Source: Escherichia phage vB_EcoM_G5211
Sequence record: MK327947.1
Direction: 5' to 3' (one strand)
Length of the DNA stretch: 64,000 bases
Shown: one piece after another, positions 6,610-59,179 of the stretch
Layout of the letters: every line of letters begins with the position of its first letter
Position numbering within the stretch: position 1 is the first letter of the stretch
Notes under the pieces: generated by a model
Told to the model about the DNA's origin: nothing
The model's input: the letters and a program-made list of their open reading frames with translations, nothing else
Database searches by the model: none
Program-made: the position numbers and the translations under genes

Positions 6610-7008
6610 TCACTTTGCAAGTCTTATGCGTAGTTGTTCAAGATCATCTGGGTTATCTATTACTGAAAAGTAGATTGATACTATGATTGAGTTATCGTCG
6701 TACTGCGGGGTTACTTCTACTGTCAGGTTTCGGACCCGTGGTTCATAGTTTCGGATCGCCTCATTGATGTTTTTTGATAAGGTATCCACTGTCAGTGGGT
6801 TCATGTTCTCAAACAGTGATTTATTGAGATCGCATCCAAACAGTGGATCAAATGGACGAGATCCCTTGCGAGTAGTCACGATCAGTAGAATAGAATCCTT
6901 AACCGCTTTAATCCCTATGTTCTTTTTAACGTCGTTATTCCACGATCTGGATATATTGAGATCCAAATCAGTATACATCTGATTAATAGTTGCCATGTTA
7001 TACCTCAA
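6610..7008 (-). CDS. 25: gp25 baseplate wedge protein
   Basis: TTRKGSRPFDPxFGCDL and SVIDNPDD motifs as in T4 gp25; same length (132 aa). Confidence 0.85.
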   Translation of the reverse strand: MRYNMATINQMYTDLDLNISRSWNNDVKKNIGIKAVKDSILLIVTTRKGSRPFDPLFGCDLNKSLFENMNPLTVDTLSKNINEAIRNYEPRVRNLTVEVTPQYDDNSIIVSIYFSVIDNPDDLEQLRIRLAK

Positions 7009-7634
7009 AGAATTTTAAGGAAACTGGATAGACCTGATAATGAATATACACCAGATTCCCCGCATTCGCACTTGATCGGTACTGCCAGTGTGATTTGATT
7101 TCTTGTTAGCTCGTCGATCACTTCTTCCACTTTATCCGTGGTAAGCATATCCAGCACGCGGTCAAAGTCCTGTGCGTTCAGGTCGTCTATATTGAATTGC
7201 TGATCGCCTATCACGATATATTCGATACATGCAATTACCATCTGCATAATATCAACATCTTCTGTAAACTTAGGTTGACGAAATTTGATTTTTACTTGCC
7301 CTAAGTCCAGAATATACGGTTCAACTTCTGGTATCTGTGTGCGTGAAACATCAAGAGAGTATACTTTCTCTTTATTGCATACACCACACACCCAAGTAGC
7401 ATCAATTTTCATCTTATTGAGGCTGTGACACCATAAGAGAAGAAAAATATATTCTGCTTCGCATTTCTCTAGCTCTAATGCATTGATCCCCGTACATTCA
7501 TGTATGATCTCTATAACAACCTCTGACAGCTTGCCAGTCTCTTTTGCTGCTACCAGTTTTTGAAATTCGCCGAAGGTGAAAGCACGGGCGTGTATCAACT
7601 TTTCGCCTAATTGGATCTTGAAAAAGTATTGCAT
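7005..7634 (-). CDS. 26: gp26 baseplate hub protein
   Basis: Size and position; paralogous to the divergently transcribed gp51. Confidence 0.65.
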   Translation of the reverse strand: MQYFFKIQLGEKLIHARAFTFGEFQKLVAAKETGKLSEVVIEIIHECTGINALELEKCEAEYIFLLLWCHSLNKMKIDATWVCGVCNKEKVYSLDVSRTQIPEVEPYILDLGQVKIKFRQPKFTEDVDIMQMVIACIEYIVIGDQQFNIDDLNAQDFDRVLDMLTTDKVEEVIDELTRNQITLAVPIKCECGESGVYSLSGLSSFLKIL

Positions 7635-17618: not shown

Positions 17619-17798
17619 TTAGAACATTTTTGAAATTAATTCTGCTTTGATTTCGCAGAGAACATCTAAAGATTTCTCGTCACCCGCTTTTGCTGCTTCT
17701 GCTTGCATTTTTGAAATGGCTTCAATGTCAGTGCAATTATAAGCCGCTTGAACTTTAGCGATTGCGATGATTGCCGATTCGATGGTTAAGTGTTTCAT
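17619..17798 (-). CDS. hypothetical small early protein (59 aa)
   Basis: Hand-translated MKHLTIESAII...; preceded by cassette. Confidence 0.45.
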   Translation of the reverse strand: MKHLTIESAIIAIAKVQAAYNCTDIEAISKMQAEAAKAGDEKSLDVLCEIKAELISKMF

Positions 17799-17868
17799 GT
17801 TTGATTCTCCTTTCGTTTCGGTATGTGTGCATTATAGGGGATCTCCGACCCCCCTGTCAACAACTTTT
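17799..17868 (-). promoter_or_regulatory. early promoter/leader cassette with GC palindrome in spacer
   Basis: TTGACA 17855-17860, TATAAT 17831-17836, palindrome GGGGGGTCGGAGATCCCC between them, GGAGAATC SD. Confidence 0.55.
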
Positions 17869-18422
17869 TAGTTATTTTTTAATTGCTCATCTTGCAATAG
17901 GGCAATCACATGCTGGCGATGTTCTTCCGATTGAGGAACACCGAAAAAGTTTGTTTTGTAGAAATACTCTAATCGGTCTTCTCGTGTGCTCTCTTCCATC
18001 ATGATCGCGGGTAGTCCGAGATTTCGGAAACGTCGCTTTTCTGCTGGCGTAAAATCACTGTAATACAACATAGAATCATCATTACCAGCAATGCTAAACT
18101 CATCATTCATGAAGGAGAATATTGCGTTTAAACGCTGTTTACCGTCCACGATTTCGATCTCATAGCGAGAGCCATCATCAATCTTAGCCATTGCGATAGC
18201 ACCAACCGGAAAATCATTAATCAGGTTTTCGATAAACATACGTTTGTTTTCGGTGTCCCATACCAAAGGACGCTGATAATCTGGGTTCATGTTGATATAG
18301 CCATCTTCTAACCATGCATCATAAACAGAGATGACAAAGTTTTTAGTATTGGTATAGTAACGGCGTTTAGGCGTTAAACGGTTCATGTTATAGTCTCCTG
18401 AATGGATCATCACGTAAATCAA
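17868..18422 (-). CDS. DUF262 (ParB-like / GmrS N-terminal-like) domain protein
   Basis: PDYQRPLVWD ... FPVGAIAMA ... IVDGKQRLNAI matches the DUF262 signature (DGQQR-type motif). Confidence 0.6.
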   Translation of the reverse strand: MIYVMIHSGDYNMNRLTPKRRYYTNTKNFVISVYDAWLEDGYINMNPDYQRPLVWDTENKRMFIENLINDFPVGAIAMAKIDDGSRYEIEIVDGKQRLNAIFSFMNDEFSIAGNDDSMLYYSDFTPAEKRRFRNLGLPAIMMEESTREDRLEYFYKTNFFGVPQSEEHRQHVIALLQDEQLKNN

Positions 18423-18717: not shown

Positions 18718-19433
18718 TATAGATCCTTATTGGCTTCAAATACTGCCTTTGCGAATCCTCGCGGGGTAAGTGACCTGATAGTCTTTGTTCTGGTTCCTTT
18801 CCCGCCTAGCTTAGAATGCTGTTTACTGTACCCTTTATTAATCTGCAACGGTTTCTTTTCTGGCATTATAAAGCCTTGTCCGGTCCATAAGCAAGTCTTT
18901 TTCGGGTACATATCACGGGCGGCAATATACTCAGGAAACGTAGGATGCTTATCATCTTCCGGCAAATAACCGCCATATTCCCACGGATGGAACATGTAAT
19001 CAGGCTTACGCCACATACTAGAGATAACGCTTACAGGATTCTCTATCATGTAGGGAACTCCTAGCCATTCACCCAAATAAGCGGTTATTTTAGCTGTCCG
19101 TACATCATGAACTTGAATCAATGGTCCTTGTTCTCGTTTCTTTCGTTCAAAGTGTGCAGCGCCACTAACAGCTAAATTGGTGCACGGTGGGAATGCAAAG
19201 ATAATATCCGGTTTCCCCCATTCAAGGTCCATTGCTCTTTCCAGCCAGTTCAAATCAATCCAGGTGTTTACATAAGTAATGTTTGGATGTTCAAATCTGG
19301 TATTATACTTTTTGTATGTACCGTGGTCGGCGTCATCCGCATTAAAGCAGACTACCTTATGACCTGCTTTAGCCCATTCTAGCCCCATTATCCCCGATCC
19401 GTCAAAGTTGCAGAATATTAATTTTTGTTTCAT
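18717..19433 (-). CDS. compact DNA C5-cytosine methyltransferase-like protein
   Basis: Motif I-like FCNFDGSGIMG, catalytic-type FAFPPC, ENP (ENV-like), C-terminal R-LTPR motif IX-like; only 238 aa. Confidence 0.5.
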   Translation of the reverse strand: MKQKLIFCNFDGSGIMGLEWAKAGHKVVCFNADDADHGTYKKYNTRFEHPNITYVNTWIDLNWLERAMDLEWGKPDIIFAFPPCTNLAVSGAAHFERKKREQGPLIQVHDVRTAKITAYLGEWLGVPYMIENPVSVISSMWRKPDYMFHPWEYGGYLPEDDKHPTFPEYIAARDMYPKKTCLWTGQGFIMPEKKPLQINKGYSKQHSKLGGKGTRTKTIRSLTPRGFAKAVFEANKDL

Positions 19434-19671
19434 ATACCACCCTTTAACCCAGCACAGATTTTAGTCGGTTCTTTACCGTGCCACATTAAGTAAAGTCCGT
19501 TAATGCGACCTTGTTTTGTGTGTGATTCTTTTCTAATCTTCTTATAGTGTCGTGCTTCCTCAACTTATTGTTTAGAATACCAATCATAAAGGAAGAGGCA
19601 CAAAGGCCAACCATTAGCGGCCTTAATGCAGTTATTAAGAAATTCCTTATTGCGTTTAATTAATTTTCTTT

Positions 19672-19923
19672 TCACGCTACCCCCATTGGTTTGATAGTAA
19701 CAGAATCTAAAAGACCTTTGTTAGCCAGTTCGCGGCAAGTTTTCAGATCCGCAACTTCCCAGCCAGCCGCAATCAGGTTATCAATCAGGCTGTTAGCAAC
19801 TTCTTCGCTCATGAAAGAGCACTGTTTGCCGATGGTGTAGCGCACACGCTGTAATTTCAGTTTACGGAAGCCTTTAACGTTCAGGTCTTTAGCGATTTTC
19901 TTTGCGGTTTCGATGTTAGCCAT
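19672..19923 (-). CDS. hypothetical early protein
   Basis: ORF preceded by cassette. Confidence 0.5.
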   Translation of the reverse strand: MANIETAKKIAKDLNVKGFRKLKLQRVRYTIGKQCSFMSEEVANSLIDNLIAAGWEVADLKTCRELANKGLLDSVTIKPMGVA

Positions 19924-19998
19924 TGTTTGATTCTCCTAAGTGGTATCTCGTCTTGATGGTTGTATTGTAGGGGAGTTATCCTCCCCTGTCAACACTTT
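19924..19998 (-). promoter_or_regulatory. early promoter/leader cassette with GC palindrome
   Basis: TTGACA 19987-19992, palindrome GGGGAGGATAACTCCCC, TACAAT, GGAGAATC. Confidence 0.55.
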
Positions 19999-20006
19999 TT
20001 ATAAAA

Positions 20007-20174
20007 TTATTTGTTAATTTCTGGTGCGTTGCTAGGATAGTAACCTTCTTTAACTCCGAGGTATTTCGCAACCATCCCTACAATCTTCTGTGCTACTACA
20101 ATGTCAAATTTCAGATAATCTTCGCCGTGGGTTTCAATGATATATGCTTCACATGCTGCTTTAGTCTCGAACAT
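20007..20174 (-). CDS. 55-aa conserved small protein, copy 1 of duplicated gene
   Basis: Hand-translated MFETKAACEAYIIETHGEDYLKFDIVVAQK...; near-identical to copy at 23273..23440. Confidence 0.55.
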   Translation of the reverse strand: MFETKAACEAYIIETHGEDYLKFDIVVAQKIVGMVAKYLGVKEGYYPSNAPEINK

Positions 20175-20242
20175 TTTGATTCTCCTATTTCGTTTCGGTA
20201 TGTGTGTAGTATAGGGGATCTCCCGATCCCCGTCAACAACTT
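20175..20242 (-). promoter_or_regulatory. early promoter/leader cassette with GC palindrome
   Basis: TTGACG, palindrome GGGGATCGGGAGATCCCC, TATACT, GGAGAATC. Confidence 0.5.
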
Positions 20243-20250
20243 TTTTAAAA

Positions 20251-20532
20251 TTATTCGTGATTAGTTTCGATATTGTGCATTTTGCACCAGTTCAGCCAAT
20301 CGCCCAGATCTTTATAGTTGATGCTTTTATCTGCTGCCATCGTTTTTGTCTTGATACCCATATGTGCGTTATGAGTAAGCATTTTTACAGTGAACTCAAT
20401 TTTATCGCCTTTAGCTTTAACATCAACCAGTTTGGTCCACTGGCTACCAGCGCCGCGAATGTTCATACCAACGATGTTTCCGATGTATGCTTCTTTGTTT
20501 TTCAGGATTTCGGTTGCTTTGATGAATTTCAT
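20251..20532 (-). CDS. hypothetical early protein
   Basis: ORF preceded by cassette. Confidence 0.5.
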   Translation of the reverse strand: MKFIKATEILKNKEAYIGNIVGMNIRGAGSQWTKLVDVKAKGDKIEFTVKMLTHNAHMGIKTKTMAADKSINYKDLGDWLNWCKMHNIETNHE

Positions 20533-20600
20533 TTTTGATTCTCCAGTTCGTTTCGGTATGGGTGTATTATGCTATGTTCTTACTTTGGTGTCAACAACTT
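20533..20600 (-). promoter_or_regulatory. early promoter/leader cassette
   Basis: TTGACA, CATAAT, conserved leader. Confidence 0.55.
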
Positions 20601-20602
20601 TT

Positions 20603-20872
20603 TTAGATATTTTCAGAAATAAATTTTAAAACTTGACGTAAATGTTTCTCATCTTTGATAGTCGCCGGAAGTTCTTCTTTTACTTCCTGTGCAAGATAGA
20701 TATTTCCGTTCCAAGTGAAAGATCCGTCTTTGTTTACGCGATAGCTGAACATCCACTCGCAATCATTTTCGATTTCATATACACACAGAAGGGTGTAATC
20801 GTTAAAGCTATTGATTTCAAGGTCGAAGCCGTGACGTTTTGCAAAGTTGGTAGTGGTTTTAGTCAGTGCCAT
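20603..20872 (-). CDS. hypothetical early protein
   Basis: ORF preceded by cassette. Confidence 0.5.
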   Translation of the reverse strand: MALTKTTTNFAKRHGFDLEINSFNDYTLLCVYEIENDCEWMFSYRVNKDGSFTWNGNIYLAQEVKEELPATIKDEKHLRQVLKFISENI

Positions 20873-20948
20873 TGTTTGATTCTCCTAAGTGGTATCTCGT
20901 TTCGATGGGTGTATTATGCTATAGGCTAGATCAGGTGTCAACAACTTT
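20873..20948 (-). promoter_or_regulatory. early promoter/leader cassette
   Basis: TTGACA 20936-20941, CATAAT, GGAGAATC. Confidence 0.55.
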
Positions 20949-20971
20949 TTTAATTTTTTGGAAATAAAAAA

Positions 20972-20991
20972 AGCCGACACTAAGGTCGGCT
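20972..20991 (-). terminator. hairpin + U-run
   Basis: AGCCGACCTTAGTGTCGGCT + TTTTTTT on minus strand. Confidence 0.6.
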
Positions 20992-20998
20992 AATAAAA

Positions 20999-21307
20999 TC
21001 ATTTAGACAAATAATCATTCTGTGCAATCCGGTCGGCGTATGCTGGTGTTATGTCAATCGCCAGCACTTTAACGCGTGCTTTCTTGCGACCTGTGTTTTC
21101 TCGTAACCAGTGCTCATGACCGTGAACATTTTTATACTGCGATGCTTCTTCGAAGGTACGGATCGGACCTGGATAATCTGCGTAAAGGATCTCTAGGTCT
21201 TCGGTGATGTAAAAATATACATCATAATTACTGTTCTCTAGTTTAAGCAGAGACTTTCGGAACATTGGGAGATTTTCGCGGGTAAATTCAAAGATATTAT
21301 CTTTCAT
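20999..21307 (-). CDS. small His-motif family protein, member 1
   Basis: Shares Y-x-Y...HxHxHW...(V)LA(I/V)D pattern with 21727..22005, 22020..22328, 22738..23016. Confidence 0.5.
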   Translation of the reverse strand: MKDNIFEFTRENLPMFRKSLLKLENSNYDVYFYITEDLEILYADYPGPIRTFEEASQYKNVHGHEHWLRENTGRKKARVKVLAIDITPAYADRIAQNDYLSK

Positions 21308-21335
21308 AGTATTATCCTCAATAGTTGGATGAAAA

Positions 21336-21352
21336 GGGGGCTTAACGCCCCC
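21336..21352 (-). terminator. hairpin + U-run
   Basis: GGGGGCGTTAAGCCCCC + TTTT; same hairpin as at 17314-17329. Confidence 0.5.
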
Positions 21353-21357
21353 ATATA

Positions 21358-21645
21358 TTAAAACAGACCTTCCTGTACACCGTAGTAGAGTTCATCGCTG
21401 ATAATTTCATTAATGCGACGGTGTGCATATTCCTGATTTGCGAAGTTGTCAGCAAGTTCTACTTTAGTTTCGCCGTCATGAGTCCATTTAGTGATAACTT
21501 TACCATCTGCAAATTTGAAGTTGAACTCTTTAGCTACCGCATCGCGTACCAGACGTGCAAACTTATTGTTGCGGATTGCATTGTCGGTTTCGTGTGCAGC
21601 GTGAGCGAATTTGTTAACTTTCAGAGTGATAGTAATGTATGCCAT
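21358..21645 (-). CDS. hypothetical early protein
   Basis: ORF preceded by cassette. Confidence 0.5.
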   Translation of the reverse strand: MAYITITLKVNKFAHAAHETDNAIRNNKFARLVRDAVAKEFNFKFADGKVITKWTHDGETKVELADNFANQEYAHRRINEIISDELYYGVQEGLF

Positions 21646-21728
21646 AATTTGATTCTCCTAGTTAGAAAGTGTATCTCGTTTCGATGGGTGTATTATGCTA
21701 TACACCCAACCTCATGTCAACACTTTTT
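21646..21728 (-). promoter_or_regulatory. early promoter/leader cassette
   Basis: TTGACA 21715-21720, CATAAT, GGAGAATC. Confidence 0.55.
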
Positions 21729-22005
21729 ATAAAATAATTTTTTGATATTTTTCTATGATGTTCGTGTAATTCACATCAACCGCTAGCACCGTTGCTTCGA
21801 ATCCACCGTTTAGCCAATGGCTATGATCGTGATCGTGAAAGAAACCTAGACCAGTACGAAGACCTTCTTTATATTCGGCGCGTACATTTAGATCATCATC
21901 GATAAACAGATAAAACCATGAATTTTTACTAGGATTGATGATACAACCTTTCAGATTCGGGAGAATATCACGACTAAGAATAAACTTATCACCTACTTTG
22001 AACAT
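21727..22005 (-). CDS. small His-motif family protein, member 2
   Basis: FHDHDHSHWL ... VLAVDV. Confidence 0.5.
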   Translation of the reverse strand: MFKVGDKFILSRDILPNLKGCIINPSKNSWFYLFIDDDLNVRAEYKEGLRTGLGFFHDHDHSHWLNGGFEATVLAVDVNYTNIIEKYQKIIL

Positions 22006-22019
22006 AATATTTTCCTCAC

Positions 22020-22328
22020 TTATAAAGTTTGACCGTTGTTTTTCGCATAATGCTTAATGCGTGCTTGATCTGCTTCCGCTGGTGATAGATTCCATGCAAC
22101 CACTACAACTTCTGACGCATCGTCATCCGTTTCTGATACCCAATGGTTGTGATTCATACAGTTATTTGCTATCGAGTGAGCAAATGATTTCATCACTGGA
22201 GACGTATAATCATAGTAACGGATTTTCAGATTTTCATCAACATACAAGTAGATCGTATAAGGTTTATATTCAGTAACCAGTAACAGACAGTTACGCAATT
22301 CTGGGAAAATCTTTTTAGTTAATTTCAT
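22020..22328 (-). CDS. small His-motif family protein, member 3 (track ORF extends to 22409)
   Basis: MNHNHWV ... VVVAWN; GAGGA RBS before internal ATG at 22328. Confidence 0.45.
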   Translation of the reverse strand: MKLTKKIFPELRNCLLLVTEYKPYTIYLYVDENLKIRYYDYTSPVMKSFAHSIANNCMNHNHWVSETDDDASEVVVVAWNLSPAEADQARIKHYAKNNGQTL

Positions 22329-22329
22329 T

Positions 22330-22551
22330 TTATAATCCTCGGTCGCGGCTATAGTACACGGTACGCCATACAATTTCATGTTTCGTGTCGCTCCAGCACA
22401 CGATCTCATTTACTCTTAAATCTTTGTTATCAACAAAAGATGAACATTGTGACGCTTCTTTCATCATTTTATCTGCTGTTTTCTCATCAAATACAGCACA
22501 GATTTCTTTATACACTCGATAATCTTTAAACTTGCTCATAATTAACACCAA
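22330..22551 (-). CDS. MSKFKDY-family small protein, copy 1
   Basis: Tandem paralog of 22542..22757. Confidence 0.5.
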   Translation of the reverse strand: MVLIMSKFKDYRVYKEICAVFDEKTADKMMKEASQCSSFVDNKDLRVNEIVCWSDTKHEIVWRTVYYSRDRGL

Positions 22552-22757
22552 TCAAGAGTTTTTGAGAAAACCTCTATCCATTGTTGAGTATATGCGGTTT
22601 CTTTCCATGATACAATACCAGTAGAATAATGGTTTTTGTTTCCAGAAAATGACGGGCATTTTGATGCATCTTCCATCATCTTTTCGGCGAACTCTGGTTC
22701 GTATACTCGCAAGATCTGTTGATATGCTTTATAATCTTTAAATTTGCTCATAATCAT
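22542..22757 (-). CDS. MSKFKDY-family small protein, copy 2
   Basis: Tandem paralog of 22330..22551. Confidence 0.5.
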   Translation of the reverse strand: MIMSKFKDYKAYQQILRVYEPEFAEKMMEDASKCPSFSGNKNHYSTGIVSWKETAYTQQWIEVFSKTLDWC

Positions 22758-23016
22758 TCACTACCTTATCAGCTTCTTTTGTTGTTTTTACATCAACTGC
22801 GATAACCCGTAAAGGTTCGTCATGGTTCCACCAATGATCGTGAATATCGGCTTGTGATTTATCACCAAAGGAATCACGAATATCATTTTTACTTTTATAG
22901 CTAATGTGACCGTCATAGTCAACATAAAGGTAATTATCGAAAATCGGCGTTTTTAAGATCATGCCGAAAAATCTTTCTTTGTGTGTCTTATCCAGCGTTG
23001 CAGTAATTCGCATCAT
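22738..23016 (-). CDS. small His-motif family protein, member 4
   Basis: IHDHWWNH ... VIAVDV. Confidence 0.5.
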   Translation of the reverse strand: MMRITATLDKTHKERFFGMILKTPIFDNYLYVDYDGHISYKSKNDIRDSFGDKSQADIHDHWWNHDEPLRVIAVDVKTTKEADKVVNDYEQI

Positions 23017-23028
23017 AATATATTCCTC

Positions 23029-23208
23029 TTAGAAAGGGATGGTCATTTCTTGAGCTTGTACATTCTCGTTAGGATTAAACTTCATCCAACCAATATTGTC
23101 TACCAGCATATGCACATTTTTATCATATCCTACGTGAGTAGTCAACACTAAATGTGATTTACCTTCAACGATGATTTCCATGTACTTCTGAACTTCGATA
23201 GCTTTCAT
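23029..23208 (-). CDS. hypothetical small early protein (59 aa)
   Basis: Hand-translated MKAIEVQKYMEIIVEG...; preceded by cassette. Confidence 0.45.
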   Translation of the reverse strand: MKAIEVQKYMEIIVEGKSHLVLTTHVGYDKNVHMLVDNIGWMKFNPNENVQAQEMTIPF

Positions 23209-23272
23209 TTTGATTCTCCGTTTGTTGTCTTGATGGGAGTATCTTACTACTCCCTTTAATCATTGTCAACTA
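23209..23272 (-). promoter_or_regulatory. early promoter/leader cassette
   Basis: TTGACA 23264-23269; GGGAGTAGTAAGATACTCCC palindrome spanning TAAGAT -10; GGAGAATC. Confidence 0.5.
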
Positions 23273-23440
23273 TTATTTGTTAATTTCTGGTGCGTTGCTT
23301 GGATAGTAACCTTCTTTAACACCCAGATATTTTGCAACCATTCCGGTGATCTTCTGTGCTACTACGATATCGAATTTCAGGTAGTCTTCACCGTGTTTTG
23401 CTACAATGTATGCTTCGCATTCTGCTTTAGTCTGGAACAT
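23273..23440 (-). CDS. 55-aa conserved small protein, copy 2 of duplicated gene
   Basis: Hand-translated MFQTKAECEAYIVAKHGEDYLKFDIVVAQK...; paralog of 20007..20174. Confidence 0.55.
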   Translation of the reverse strand: MFQTKAECEAYIVAKHGEDYLKFDIVVAQKITGMVAKYLGVKEGYYPSNAPEINK

Positions 23441-23520
23441 TTTTGATTCTCCTATATCTCGTTGGTATGTGTGTATTATAGGGGATCTCCCGATCCCCTG
23501 TCAACAACTTTTTTGAATTA
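23441..23520 (-). promoter_or_regulatory. early promoter/leader cassette with GC palindrome
   Basis: TTGACA 23509-23514, GGGGATCGGGAGATCCCC, TATAAT, GGAGAATC. Confidence 0.55.
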
Positions 23521-23994
23521 TTTTTCTTGATGCTCGCGCTCGTACTTTTCGAAATAAAATTCTACTGGCTGGTCATGAATTGACAGCAAGCCAAAGCGTT
23601 TAGCCGCTCGCAATCCCATATTGCGCTGAATGTACTTCTGGAAGTTCTCGCGTATACACTTACGCCAGTATTCTAAGCCCATACAGCTTTTATAAAGATT
23701 GCATTGTACACACGCCGGATTCATGTTATCAAGTATATCATGTTCCGGTTTATGCATTCCTACAACCTTATACTTCCACGACCCATCATCATTACGGGCA
23801 ATTCGTCCATTTTCATCATAGACTACCTTTGAGCGTCGCAATACTGGTTTGATATGGTCTGCGTGCCAGCGATCCCCTAGTTCCTCGCCACAATAGGCAC
23901 AACGCCCACCGTATTTCATTTTCAGGATCTGGCGTTGCTCTTTCTTTGACAATTTTTTAGGTTTAGGGGCTTTCGCCCCTTCATTATCACACAT
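23518..23994 (-). CDS. HNH endonuclease
   Basis: CAYCGEEL...HADHIKPV...NMNPACVQCN HNH/zinc-finger motif; overlaps 3' end of ligase gene. Confidence 0.65.
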   Translation of the reverse strand: MCDNEGAKAPKPKKLSKKEQRQILKMKYGGRCAYCGEELGDRWHADHIKPVLRRSKVVYDENGRIARNDDGSWKYKVVGMHKPEHDILDNMNPACVQCNLYKSCMGLEYWRKCIRENFQKYIQRNMGLRAAKRFGLLSIHDQPVEFYFEKYEREHQEK

Positions 23995-58740: not shown

Positions 58741-58896
58741 TTAAATTTCTTCTACAGTAAAGTCTTCAATGTTGTTGTGCTCGGCGAACGTTGCCAGACC
58801 AGCATTCCATGCATCATCCTCAGAGAAGAATACACCGTAACGTTCATATCCTTTAGCGCCTTCAAATTTAACCATTAATTTGTGAGTATGTTTCAT
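58741..58896 (-). CDS. hypothetical small protein (51 aa; track ORF extends to 58959)
   Basis: ATG 58896 directly downstream of cassette. Confidence 0.45.
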   Translation of the reverse strand: MKHTHKLMVKFEGAKGYERYGVFFSEDDAWNAGLATFAEHNNIEDFTVEEI

Positions 58897-58962
58897 TTTG
58901 ATTCTCCTTCGTTGTCTTGATGAGTTTAGTATAGGGGATCGCCGATCCCCTGTCAACAACTA
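58897..58962 (-). promoter_or_regulatory. early promoter/leader cassette with GC palindrome
   Basis: TTGACA 58951-58956, GGGGATCGGCGATCCCC, TATACT. Confidence 0.5.
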
Positions 58963-58966
58963 TTTT

Positions 58967-59179
58967 TTAATTTTTACCCGCTCGTGCATTAATACGCATT
59001 TTCTGCATAGCCATGATCTGGCTTACTGCTTCTTCTTTACGTTCTTGCGTGATAACGTGACCAGATTCCGCAAACTCTCCCGCAACTTCTTCTACGATCT
59101 CGCGAATTTGAGAACGTCCAAAGATGCGGTTTCCTTCGTAGCCCATAAACTCGGTTACTACTTGCTCGATAGATTTCAT
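58967..59179 (-). CDS. hypothetical small protein (70 aa)
   Basis: ATG 59179 downstream of cassette. Confidence 0.45.
   Translation of the reverse strand: MKSIEQVVTEFMGYEGNRIFGRSQIREIVEEVAGEFAESGHVITQERKEEAVSQIMAMQKMRINARAGKN

Follow-up and report, generated by a model that had tools for sequence, protein, structure and literature searches.

Two copies of a small gene, each preceded by its own early promoter cassette, are encoded on the minus strand of the stretch of DNA analysed here, 64,000 nucleotides (nt) of Escherichia phage vB_EcoM_G5211 (MK327947.1; hereafter the window). We conclude that a single unit, comprising one cassette and one open reading frame (ORF) for a protein of 55 amino acids (aa), was probably (at roughly 80%) copied by homologous recombination between such cassettes before the sampled members of the genus Krischvirus diverged, and that both copies have since been retained by purifying selection. 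The cassettes are promoter-early stem-loops (PeSLs), in which a strong sigma-70 promoter is combined with a terminator or attenuator hairpin; there are about 50 of them per genome, concentrated in hyperplastic regions (PMC2839356). The window belongs to an RB49-like T4-type coliphage (Krischvirus, Straboviridae), and its part from 19.5 to 24.0 kb matches 58 phage records, all of them Krischvirus, at 90-97% identity. The locus, which the annotation of RB49 and Phi1 places with the DNA ligase/HNH genes on one side and the DNA methyltransferase/Alt genes on the other, is the Krischvirus hyperplastic region named HPR3 by Arbiol et al. 2010 (PMC2839356), that is, the published type locus of PeSLs.

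Copy A (20007-20174) is the ortholog of RB49p191 and phi1 ORF191, and copy B (23273-23440) is the ortholog of RB49p205 and phi1 ORF205; both belong to the PHROGs family phrog_8009, which copy A matches with E = 7e-38. Both ORFs are complete, and their products share 49 of 55 residues without gaps (BLASTP, E = 2e-37), while the genes match at 142 of 168 nt, leaving 26 differences (15.5% divergence). They form by far the strongest paralog pair in the window, where the next best pairs are at most 44% identical. The protein of copy A is 100% identical to copy A in 43 phage records (tblastn). The start-to-start spacing of the copies is 3,266 bp, and their upstream cassettes agree at 69 of 77 positions (90%). 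The original prediction, made from the sequence of the window, of near-identical minus-strand genes about 3.3 kb apart behind a shared early cassette is thus borne out to the exact coordinates. Similarity restricted to the promoter cassette, which that prediction had named as the result that would overturn it, is rejected by the agreement of the coding regions in both protein and DNA.

Followed along the transcribed strand by blastn, homology between the two loci sets in at an AT-rich tract and the stop codon of the gene upstream and runs to the TAA codon of the 55-aa ORF, past which there is only a generic likeness between different cassettes. The repeat unit of about 250 bp (20006-20255 and 23272-23522) therefore consists of one PeSL and one ORF, and since its limits coincide with those of the cassette, the duplicated unit is one such cassette and not a larger block. 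The 3' limit is marked at copy A by PeSL191/190 (19924-20006, minus strand; hairpin GGGGAG-GATAA-CTCCCC, fold -19.4 kcal/mol, z = -5.5), where homology with the flank of copy B stops and whose hairpin is likely to be the terminator of copy A. Downstream of copy B lies PeSL205/204 (23209-23272, minus strand), with the hairpin GGGAGTA-GTAAGA-TACTCCC overlapping the -10 box (fold -12.2 kcal/mol, z = -3.1). The PeSLs downstream of the two copies belong to different subtypes.

The cassette upstream of copy A, PeSL193/191 (20175-20250, minus strand), comprises in order an AT-rich tract, a -35 box TTGACG (20236-20231), a hairpin GGGGATC-GGGA-GATCCCC (20231-20214), a -10 box TATACT (20213-20208), a leader, the Shine-Dalgarno (SD) sequence GGAGAATCAAA and the ATG codon; its RNA folds with -14.5 kcal/mol (z = -2.9 against shuffled sequences). 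The cassette of copy B (23441-23517, minus strand) has the -35 box TTGACA (23504-23499) and the -10 box TATAAT (23480-23475), with the same hairpin GGGGATC-GGGA-GATCCCC within the 18-nt spacer (23498-23481), followed by the SD and ATG, and folds with -16.0 kcal/mol (z = -3.2 against shuffles). Both promoters have near-consensus sigma-70 boxes, TTGACG-N17-TATACT at copy A and TTGACA-N18-TATAAT at copy B, each placed after a tract of the form TAAT(T)nAAAAAAGTTG. The spacer of 17 or 18 nt is almost wholly occupied by the hairpin, and the leader of about 25 nt ends in GGAGAATCAAA(A)ATG. Both copies thus carry the features that characterise a PeSL, namely a promoter with an AT tract, a G-tract/C-tract hairpin, an SD and the ATG of an ORFan, in an intergenic and repeated element. 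Rfam searched at the gathering threshold over 17-26 kb gave no match.

The PeSL of copy B is the counterpart of PeSL206/205 of RB49, placed here directly after the HNH gene. A lacZ fusion to the RB49 promoter yielded about 13,000 Miller units, and the hairpin of RB49 PeSL211/210 was reported to act as a terminator in vivo (PMC2839356). The cassette in the window differs from RB49 PeSL206/205 in the hairpin loop and the upstream tract: its loop (in 23481-23498) is of the A type, GGGA, whereas all other two-copy genomes compared have GGT or ACC. The GGT and ACC loops, set within the palindromic stem GGGGATC/GATCCCC, correspond to a reverse-complement flip of the whole hairpin (loci L006:2600-2674, L007:3650-3725, L002 and L010-L012 of the comparative set).

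Nine PeSLs were identified by the promoter scan within 17.6-23.6 kb of the window, and the signature 10-mer GGAGAATCAA is present 12 times on the minus strand of the window and never on the plus strand. Two further minus-strand PeSLs of the same GGGG(A/G)(T/G)C...GATCCCC subtype, at 17790-17885 (at 17860) and about 58880-58970 (at 58956), precede unrelated small genes and share 79-84% identity with the PeSLs of the two copies. Because the PeSL is an element repeated throughout the genome, its presence alone says little about co-duplication, and because PeSLs of the same subtype before unrelated genes reach such values, the likeness of the cassettes is weak evidence for it. It is the similarity of the ORFs and not that of the cassettes that establishes the duplication.

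Between copies A and B, synonymous divergence (dS) is 0.99 and nonsynonymous divergence (dN) is 0.059 by the Nei-Gojobori method, giving a dN/dS of 0.06, which is the signature expected of purifying selection on both copies. By tblastn, the gene is found at 121 places in 70 phage records; 51 of the 58 Krischvirus records have two copies, seven have one, and none lacks it. Copies were typed in a comparative set that includes RB49, Phi1, phiS, PTE-Eco09, an ECD7-like contig, Brandy, Cognac and FL04. The same 26 diagnostic nt sites tell A-type and B-type copies apart throughout the genomes compared, and at least 19 of the 26 are fixed within each copy type across all genomes examined. Orthologous copies differ from those of the window by 0-3% of nt in most genomes, and by more only where a conversion tract is present. 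A dS of about 1, paralog divergence of 15.5% against ortholog divergence of 0-3%, and the two-copy state of 51 of 58 records together place the duplication before the divergence of the sampled Krischvirus. The duplication is thus old and fixed in the genus, and copy-number heterogeneity, for which an inspection of read coverage had been proposed, is not likely.

The copies still recombine with each other, by conversion, by collapse and by excision. Copy B of Brandy and of PTE-Eco09 carries six contiguous A-type diagnostic sites (positions 51-75), and position 45, the adjacent seventh site, is A-type in most B copies. In PTE-Eco09, the leader and the first 24 nt of copy A are B-type, so that a chimeric protein results, and copy A of Cognac and of phiS has B-type patches near the 3' end. 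The A-type loop in PeSL-B of the window is counted among these tracts. The single copy of Cognac and FL04 represents a collapse: the ORF206 context normally found upstream of copy B leads directly into an A-type ORF with ORF190 behind it, and the entire block between the copies has disappeared. The crossover point is at the SD/ATG in Cognac, while in FL04 it falls within the hairpin/-10 region of the PeSL, and these were therefore two independent events.

Clean loss of copy A is seen in Brandy, JK32 and UPWr_E1, where ORF193 is directly followed by ORF190. The junction is a chimeric PeSL composed of the promoter and hairpin of 193/191 and the leader of 191/190; the crossover falls after the -10 box and before the SD. 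The same zone has been published for RB49 mini-circles: 'band H', the sequenced mini-circle that carries ORF191-194, was formed by a crossover located past the -10 box and ahead of the ATG (PMC2839356). A larger PeSL-to-PeSL deletion, again with a chimeric PeSL at the junction, is present in MIZ4. PeSLs thus serve at this locus as recombination sites for the insertion, deletion and shuffling of the ORFs that they flank. In one IMG/VR contig (150 kb; L004:7428-7773), a deletion that made no use of a PeSL joins ORF199 to ORF190, each cut in its middle, with the loss of ORF198, 197, 194, 193 and copy A; the IMG/VR scan yielded only two loci, too few for a phylogeny of the copies. The original prediction had attributed the region to recombination-driven expansion. 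Comparison of related genomes shows such recombination-driven gains and losses directly and supports this attribution, while the expansion as such comes down to one unit of about 250 bp, which is ancient and fixed and not recent.

In the proposed mechanism, each copy would act as a self-contained immediate-early cassette, consisting of the AT-rich tract, the sigma-70 promoter with its hairpin spacer, the leader, the SD GGAGAATCAAA and the 55-aa ORF, and would be insulated by the hairpin of the next PeSL downstream. Host RNA polymerase would then transcribe each copy separately right after infection. The PeSL+ORF unit was probably copied to another PeSL at a distance of about 3.3 kb, either by unequal exchange between replicating genomes or by reinsertion of an excised PeSL mini-circle; both the direction and the exact route of this original event are what we infer. 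Once in place, the copies have persisted as substrates of recombination, giving rise to short conversion tracts, to loss of everything between them, or to clean excision of a single cassette. For the orthologous RB49 locus, the activity of the PeSL206/205 promoter, the terminator activity of a PeSL hairpin and the formation of ORF191-194 mini-circles are known (PMC2839356).

The 55-aa protein itself is predicted to be a two-helix ORFan. No match was found for either copy in a Pfam scan or for the protein in a sequence-profile search of PDB, and its only match in PHROGs, phrog_8009, is a family without known function; the comparison with phage proteins proposed at the outset thus led to this family. 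A word-indexed search of 5.8 billion proteins returned four close matches, and a profile search of 1.84 billion cluster representatives returned about four true relatives. Of the other profile matches, P0006 resembles a chimeric assembly; P0008 and P0009, both long and repetitive, were regarded as noise. The AlphaFold 2 (AF2) model built from an alignment of seven sequences has a mean predicted local distance difference test (pLDDT) score of 80.8 and contains helices at residues 5-16 and 18-39; an earlier AF2 model from a six-sequence alignment (pLDDT 61.6) was not used. Foldseek searches of the model against PDB and BFVD gave nothing below E = 3.6. The GYYPSN tail is conserved in the family alignment, and the six residues that differ between copies A and B (3, 7, 13-15 and 32) lie mostly in helix 1. 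These differences possibly give the two copies different specificities. As a guess, the product might be an early protein, small and helical, with a host or competitor factor as its binding partner. The presence of at least one copy in every sampled genome, together with its travel into a prophage alongside genes resembling ORF193 and ORF194, suggests that the protein is useful.

Homologs with 72-74% identity are encoded by the Swiduovirus phages swi2 and Bas81 and by the Salmonella siphoviruses D10, Pu29 and SeSz-2. In swi2 (L005:4930-5380), the homolog is part of a two-gene unit that adjoins the large terminase gene on the strand opposite to its neighbours; this unit has a promoter, TTGAAG-N17-TAGAAT, a 34-nt leader partly like that of PeSL-B, and an intrinsic terminator downstream. 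A 53-aa homolog (57% identity) is found at the end of a lambdoid prophage, adjoining ghrA and tRNA-Ser, in an enterobacterial host that is not E. coli, the flank having only 77% identity to that species. Before it lie a PeSL-like promoter, TTGACA-N17-TAATAT, and a leader with a hairpin and GGAGAATCAAAGATG, an SD of the Krischvirus type; this 10-mer occurs once in the 12.8 kb examined. It is followed by a homolog of ORF193 (58% identity, E = 3e-40) and one of ORF194 (39%, E = 2e-25), an arrangement found in L017-L026 (e.g. L020:10001-10856). The ORF191, 193 and 194 families also adjoin copy A in the window (20007-20872) and lie on the published RB49 ORF191-194 mini-circle.

The prophage order 191-193-194 was considered as a circular permutation of the Krischvirus order 194-193-191 and rejected, as it is not a permutation; the opening of a single mini-circle therefore fails to explain it. 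The shared arrangement suggests that the cassette moves from one phage family to another along with its leader, and that a module may be made up of ORF191, 193 and 194. A wider scenario can be built on this, in which the cassette moves between virulent T4-type and temperate phages by way of PeSL mini-circles, the three genes form the module, and the two copies are kept because their first helices address different targets; we hold this scenario to be speculative and rather improbable. If it were true, ORF191, 193 and 194 would make up a small functional module with a diverged spare copy, not a mere redundant duplicate.

Several points weigh against the duplication of one PeSL+ORF unit as proposed here. 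The PeSLs upstream of copies A and B (89-90%) are only modestly closer to each other than to the other PeSLs of the same subtype (79-84%), and the PeSLs of the two phiS copies are only 73% identical, so that co-duplication of the promoter with the ORF is likely, not proven. As neighbouring PeSLs are alike, the original junctions cannot be placed to the nucleotide. The terms 'duplicat*' and 'paralog*' are not used in the published PeSL papers, which cover insertion, deletion and replacement (PMC2839356, PMC4122927), and PeSL-mediated duplication is therefore an extension of the published model. No homology support for the role of the protein was obtained from Pfam, the PDB profile search, the profile search or Foldseek. 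The identity of 89% between copies A and B, compared with 57-72% to the outgroups, speaks for the two being each other's closest relatives without proving it, as the family is tiny (about four in 1.84 billion representatives) and gene conversion is present.

The principal rival explanation is that copies A and B are related cassettes which a Krischvirus ancestor acquired from other phages in two separate events, with no copying inside one genome. The gene is mobile, as its homologs in swi2, Bas81, the Salmonella siphoviruses D10, Pu29 and SeSz-2 and the lambdoid prophage indicate, its dS of about 1 is far above the divergence of Krischvirus orthologs, and linkage to ORF193 and ORF194, seen also in the prophage, is confined to copy A. 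Two such acquisitions are nevertheless unlikely, given that copies A and B are 89% identical to each other and at most 72% to any outside homolog, that the C-terminal APEINK tail and the HGEDYLKFDIVVAQKI core are common to A and B and missing in the outgroups, and that no closer donor was found among 5.8 billion proteins, 1.84 billion cluster representatives and 50,697 phage records. The mini-circle model, for its part, makes no distinction between transfer inside one genome and exchange among co-infecting relatives. Given the small size of the family, this rival is improbable rather than firmly excluded.

It is less probable still that the likeness of the copies has been kept mainly by gene conversion between much older paralogs, their apparent age and sisterhood being artefacts of homogenisation. 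Several conversion tracts are indeed visible, and PeSL-B of the window has the A-type loop GGGA where other two-copy genomes have GGT or ACC; these tracts are short and sporadic, though, and at least 19 of 26 diagnostic sites are fixed per copy type, so that homogenisation is weak relative to divergence. That the duplication is recent or unstable, or arose from misassembly, and is peculiar to this one genome can be practically dismissed. Direct repeats of about 250 bp can collapse in a recombination-proficient T4-type phage, as in Cognac and FL04, but the comparative data refute an event of this kind here: two copies are present in 51 records, both show the same 26 differences at orthologous sites in the independently sequenced RB49, Phi1, phiS, PTE-Eco09 and ECD7-like contig, and 15.5% nt divergence excludes a recent origin. 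An ancient duplication of one PeSL+ORF unit, retained in both copies, is the reading that we prefer.

The block between the copies (20251-23208, minus strand) contains ten small early ORFs, the orthologs of RB49 ORF193, 194 and 197-204, and further PeSLs at 20594, 20941 and 21720. It includes a four-member paralog family (20999-21307, 21727-22005, 22020-22409 and 22738-23016, the orthologs of ORF197, 199, 200 and 203) with 27-32% identity and a common H-x-H-W motif, assigned to phrog_9345, 17255 and 15972. These four diverged paralogs represent an older expansion of another ORFan family. A tandem overlapping pair, 22330-22551 and 22542-22757 (ORF201 and ORF202 orthologs), encodes proteins of 71 and 73 aa that are 44% identical and both start with MSKFKDY. 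The small paralogs that had been expected between the two copies are thus present. Elsewhere in the window, paralog pairs with 25-40% identity are found at 34408-34575/34575-34748, 14314-15138/15217-17268, 7005-7634 (minus strand)/7705-8475 (plus strand) and 55895-56224/56333-56665. Among them are the Alt and Alt-like ADP-ribosyltransferases and the divergently oriented pair at 7.0-8.5 kb.

Directly upstream of PeSL-B lies an HNH endonuclease gene (23518-23994, minus strand; Pfam HNH, E = 5e-6), the ortholog of RB49 ORF212. The six genes that part it from copy B in RB49, ORF206-211, are absent here (window 23441-23994 compared with L006:215-2842), and the absence of ORF192 and of ORF206-211 characterises the arrangement of this genome. 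The order upstream of copy B is HNH-211-210-209-208-207-206-B in RB49; Phi1 has the same order minus 211, Brandy and JK32 the same minus 210 and 211, and PTE-Eco09, which retains only ORF210, has HNH-210-B. Among the genomes inspected, the order HNH-B is common only to phiS and the window. On the other side of the locus, codon 37 (19565-19567) of the ORF189.1 ortholog (19430-19675, minus strand) is TAA here and TCA or TCG in RB49, Phi1 and PTE-Eco09, so that this small gene is truncated to 36 aa.

The closest known system is the PeSL shuffling of HPR3 in RB49 and phi1 (PMC2839356; Comeau et al. 2014, PMC4122927), in the same genus and at the same locus, where ORF191 and ORF205 are the two copies. 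The PeSLs of RB49 and phi1 likewise comprise an AT-rich tract, TTGACA-N17/18-TATAAT, a G(n)-loop-C(n) hairpin, an SD and an ATG, and chimeric PeSLs are found there too at indel junctions, with crossovers between the -10 box and the ATG. The PeSL papers describe the insertion, deletion and replacement of ORFans and the mini-circles, and contain no retained cassette duplication, no gene conversion between paralogs, no collapse of two copies and no mention of the paralogy of ORF191 and ORF205 (PMC2839356; PMC4122927). The type of element, the mechanism and the locus are already published, and GenBank has contained both genes ever since the genome of RB49; the additions made here, namely variants due to conversion, collapse and excision and the gene trio of the prophage, are small and leave current understanding unchanged. 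What they add to the published model is that the same mechanism can leave a retained duplicate, and that duplicates of this kind are later altered by gene conversion and by collapse through their repeats. This locus illustrates cleanly, in a natural setting, the way in which T4-type phages assemble and trim their arrays of small early genes, the cassette being both expression signal and recombination site, and the 55-aa protein is a reasonable candidate for work on ORFans of early host takeover or anti-defence.

The cassettes can also be compared with the morons of lambdoid and other tailed phages, which in the Hendrix/Juhala concept are autonomous promoter-gene-terminator inserts. As in morons, an accessory ORF with its own sigma-70 promoter and a flanking hairpin or terminator is placed between other genes, and the homologs in the swi2 unit and at the end of the lambdoid prophage occupy moron-like positions. 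Unlike morons, the Krischvirus cassettes are densely arranged in tandem, share a repeated regulatory sequence that is itself the recombination site, and belong to a strictly lytic cycle. A further comparison, by analogy only, may be made with integron gene cassettes. The Krischvirus units differ from these in having no integrase and no attC/attI sites, in relying on general homologous recombination over a PeSL of about 70-100 bp, and in carrying a promoter for each cassette; they resemble them in uniting one ORF with one recombination site, in passing through a circular intermediate, in reinsertion at a like site and in the formation of arrays.

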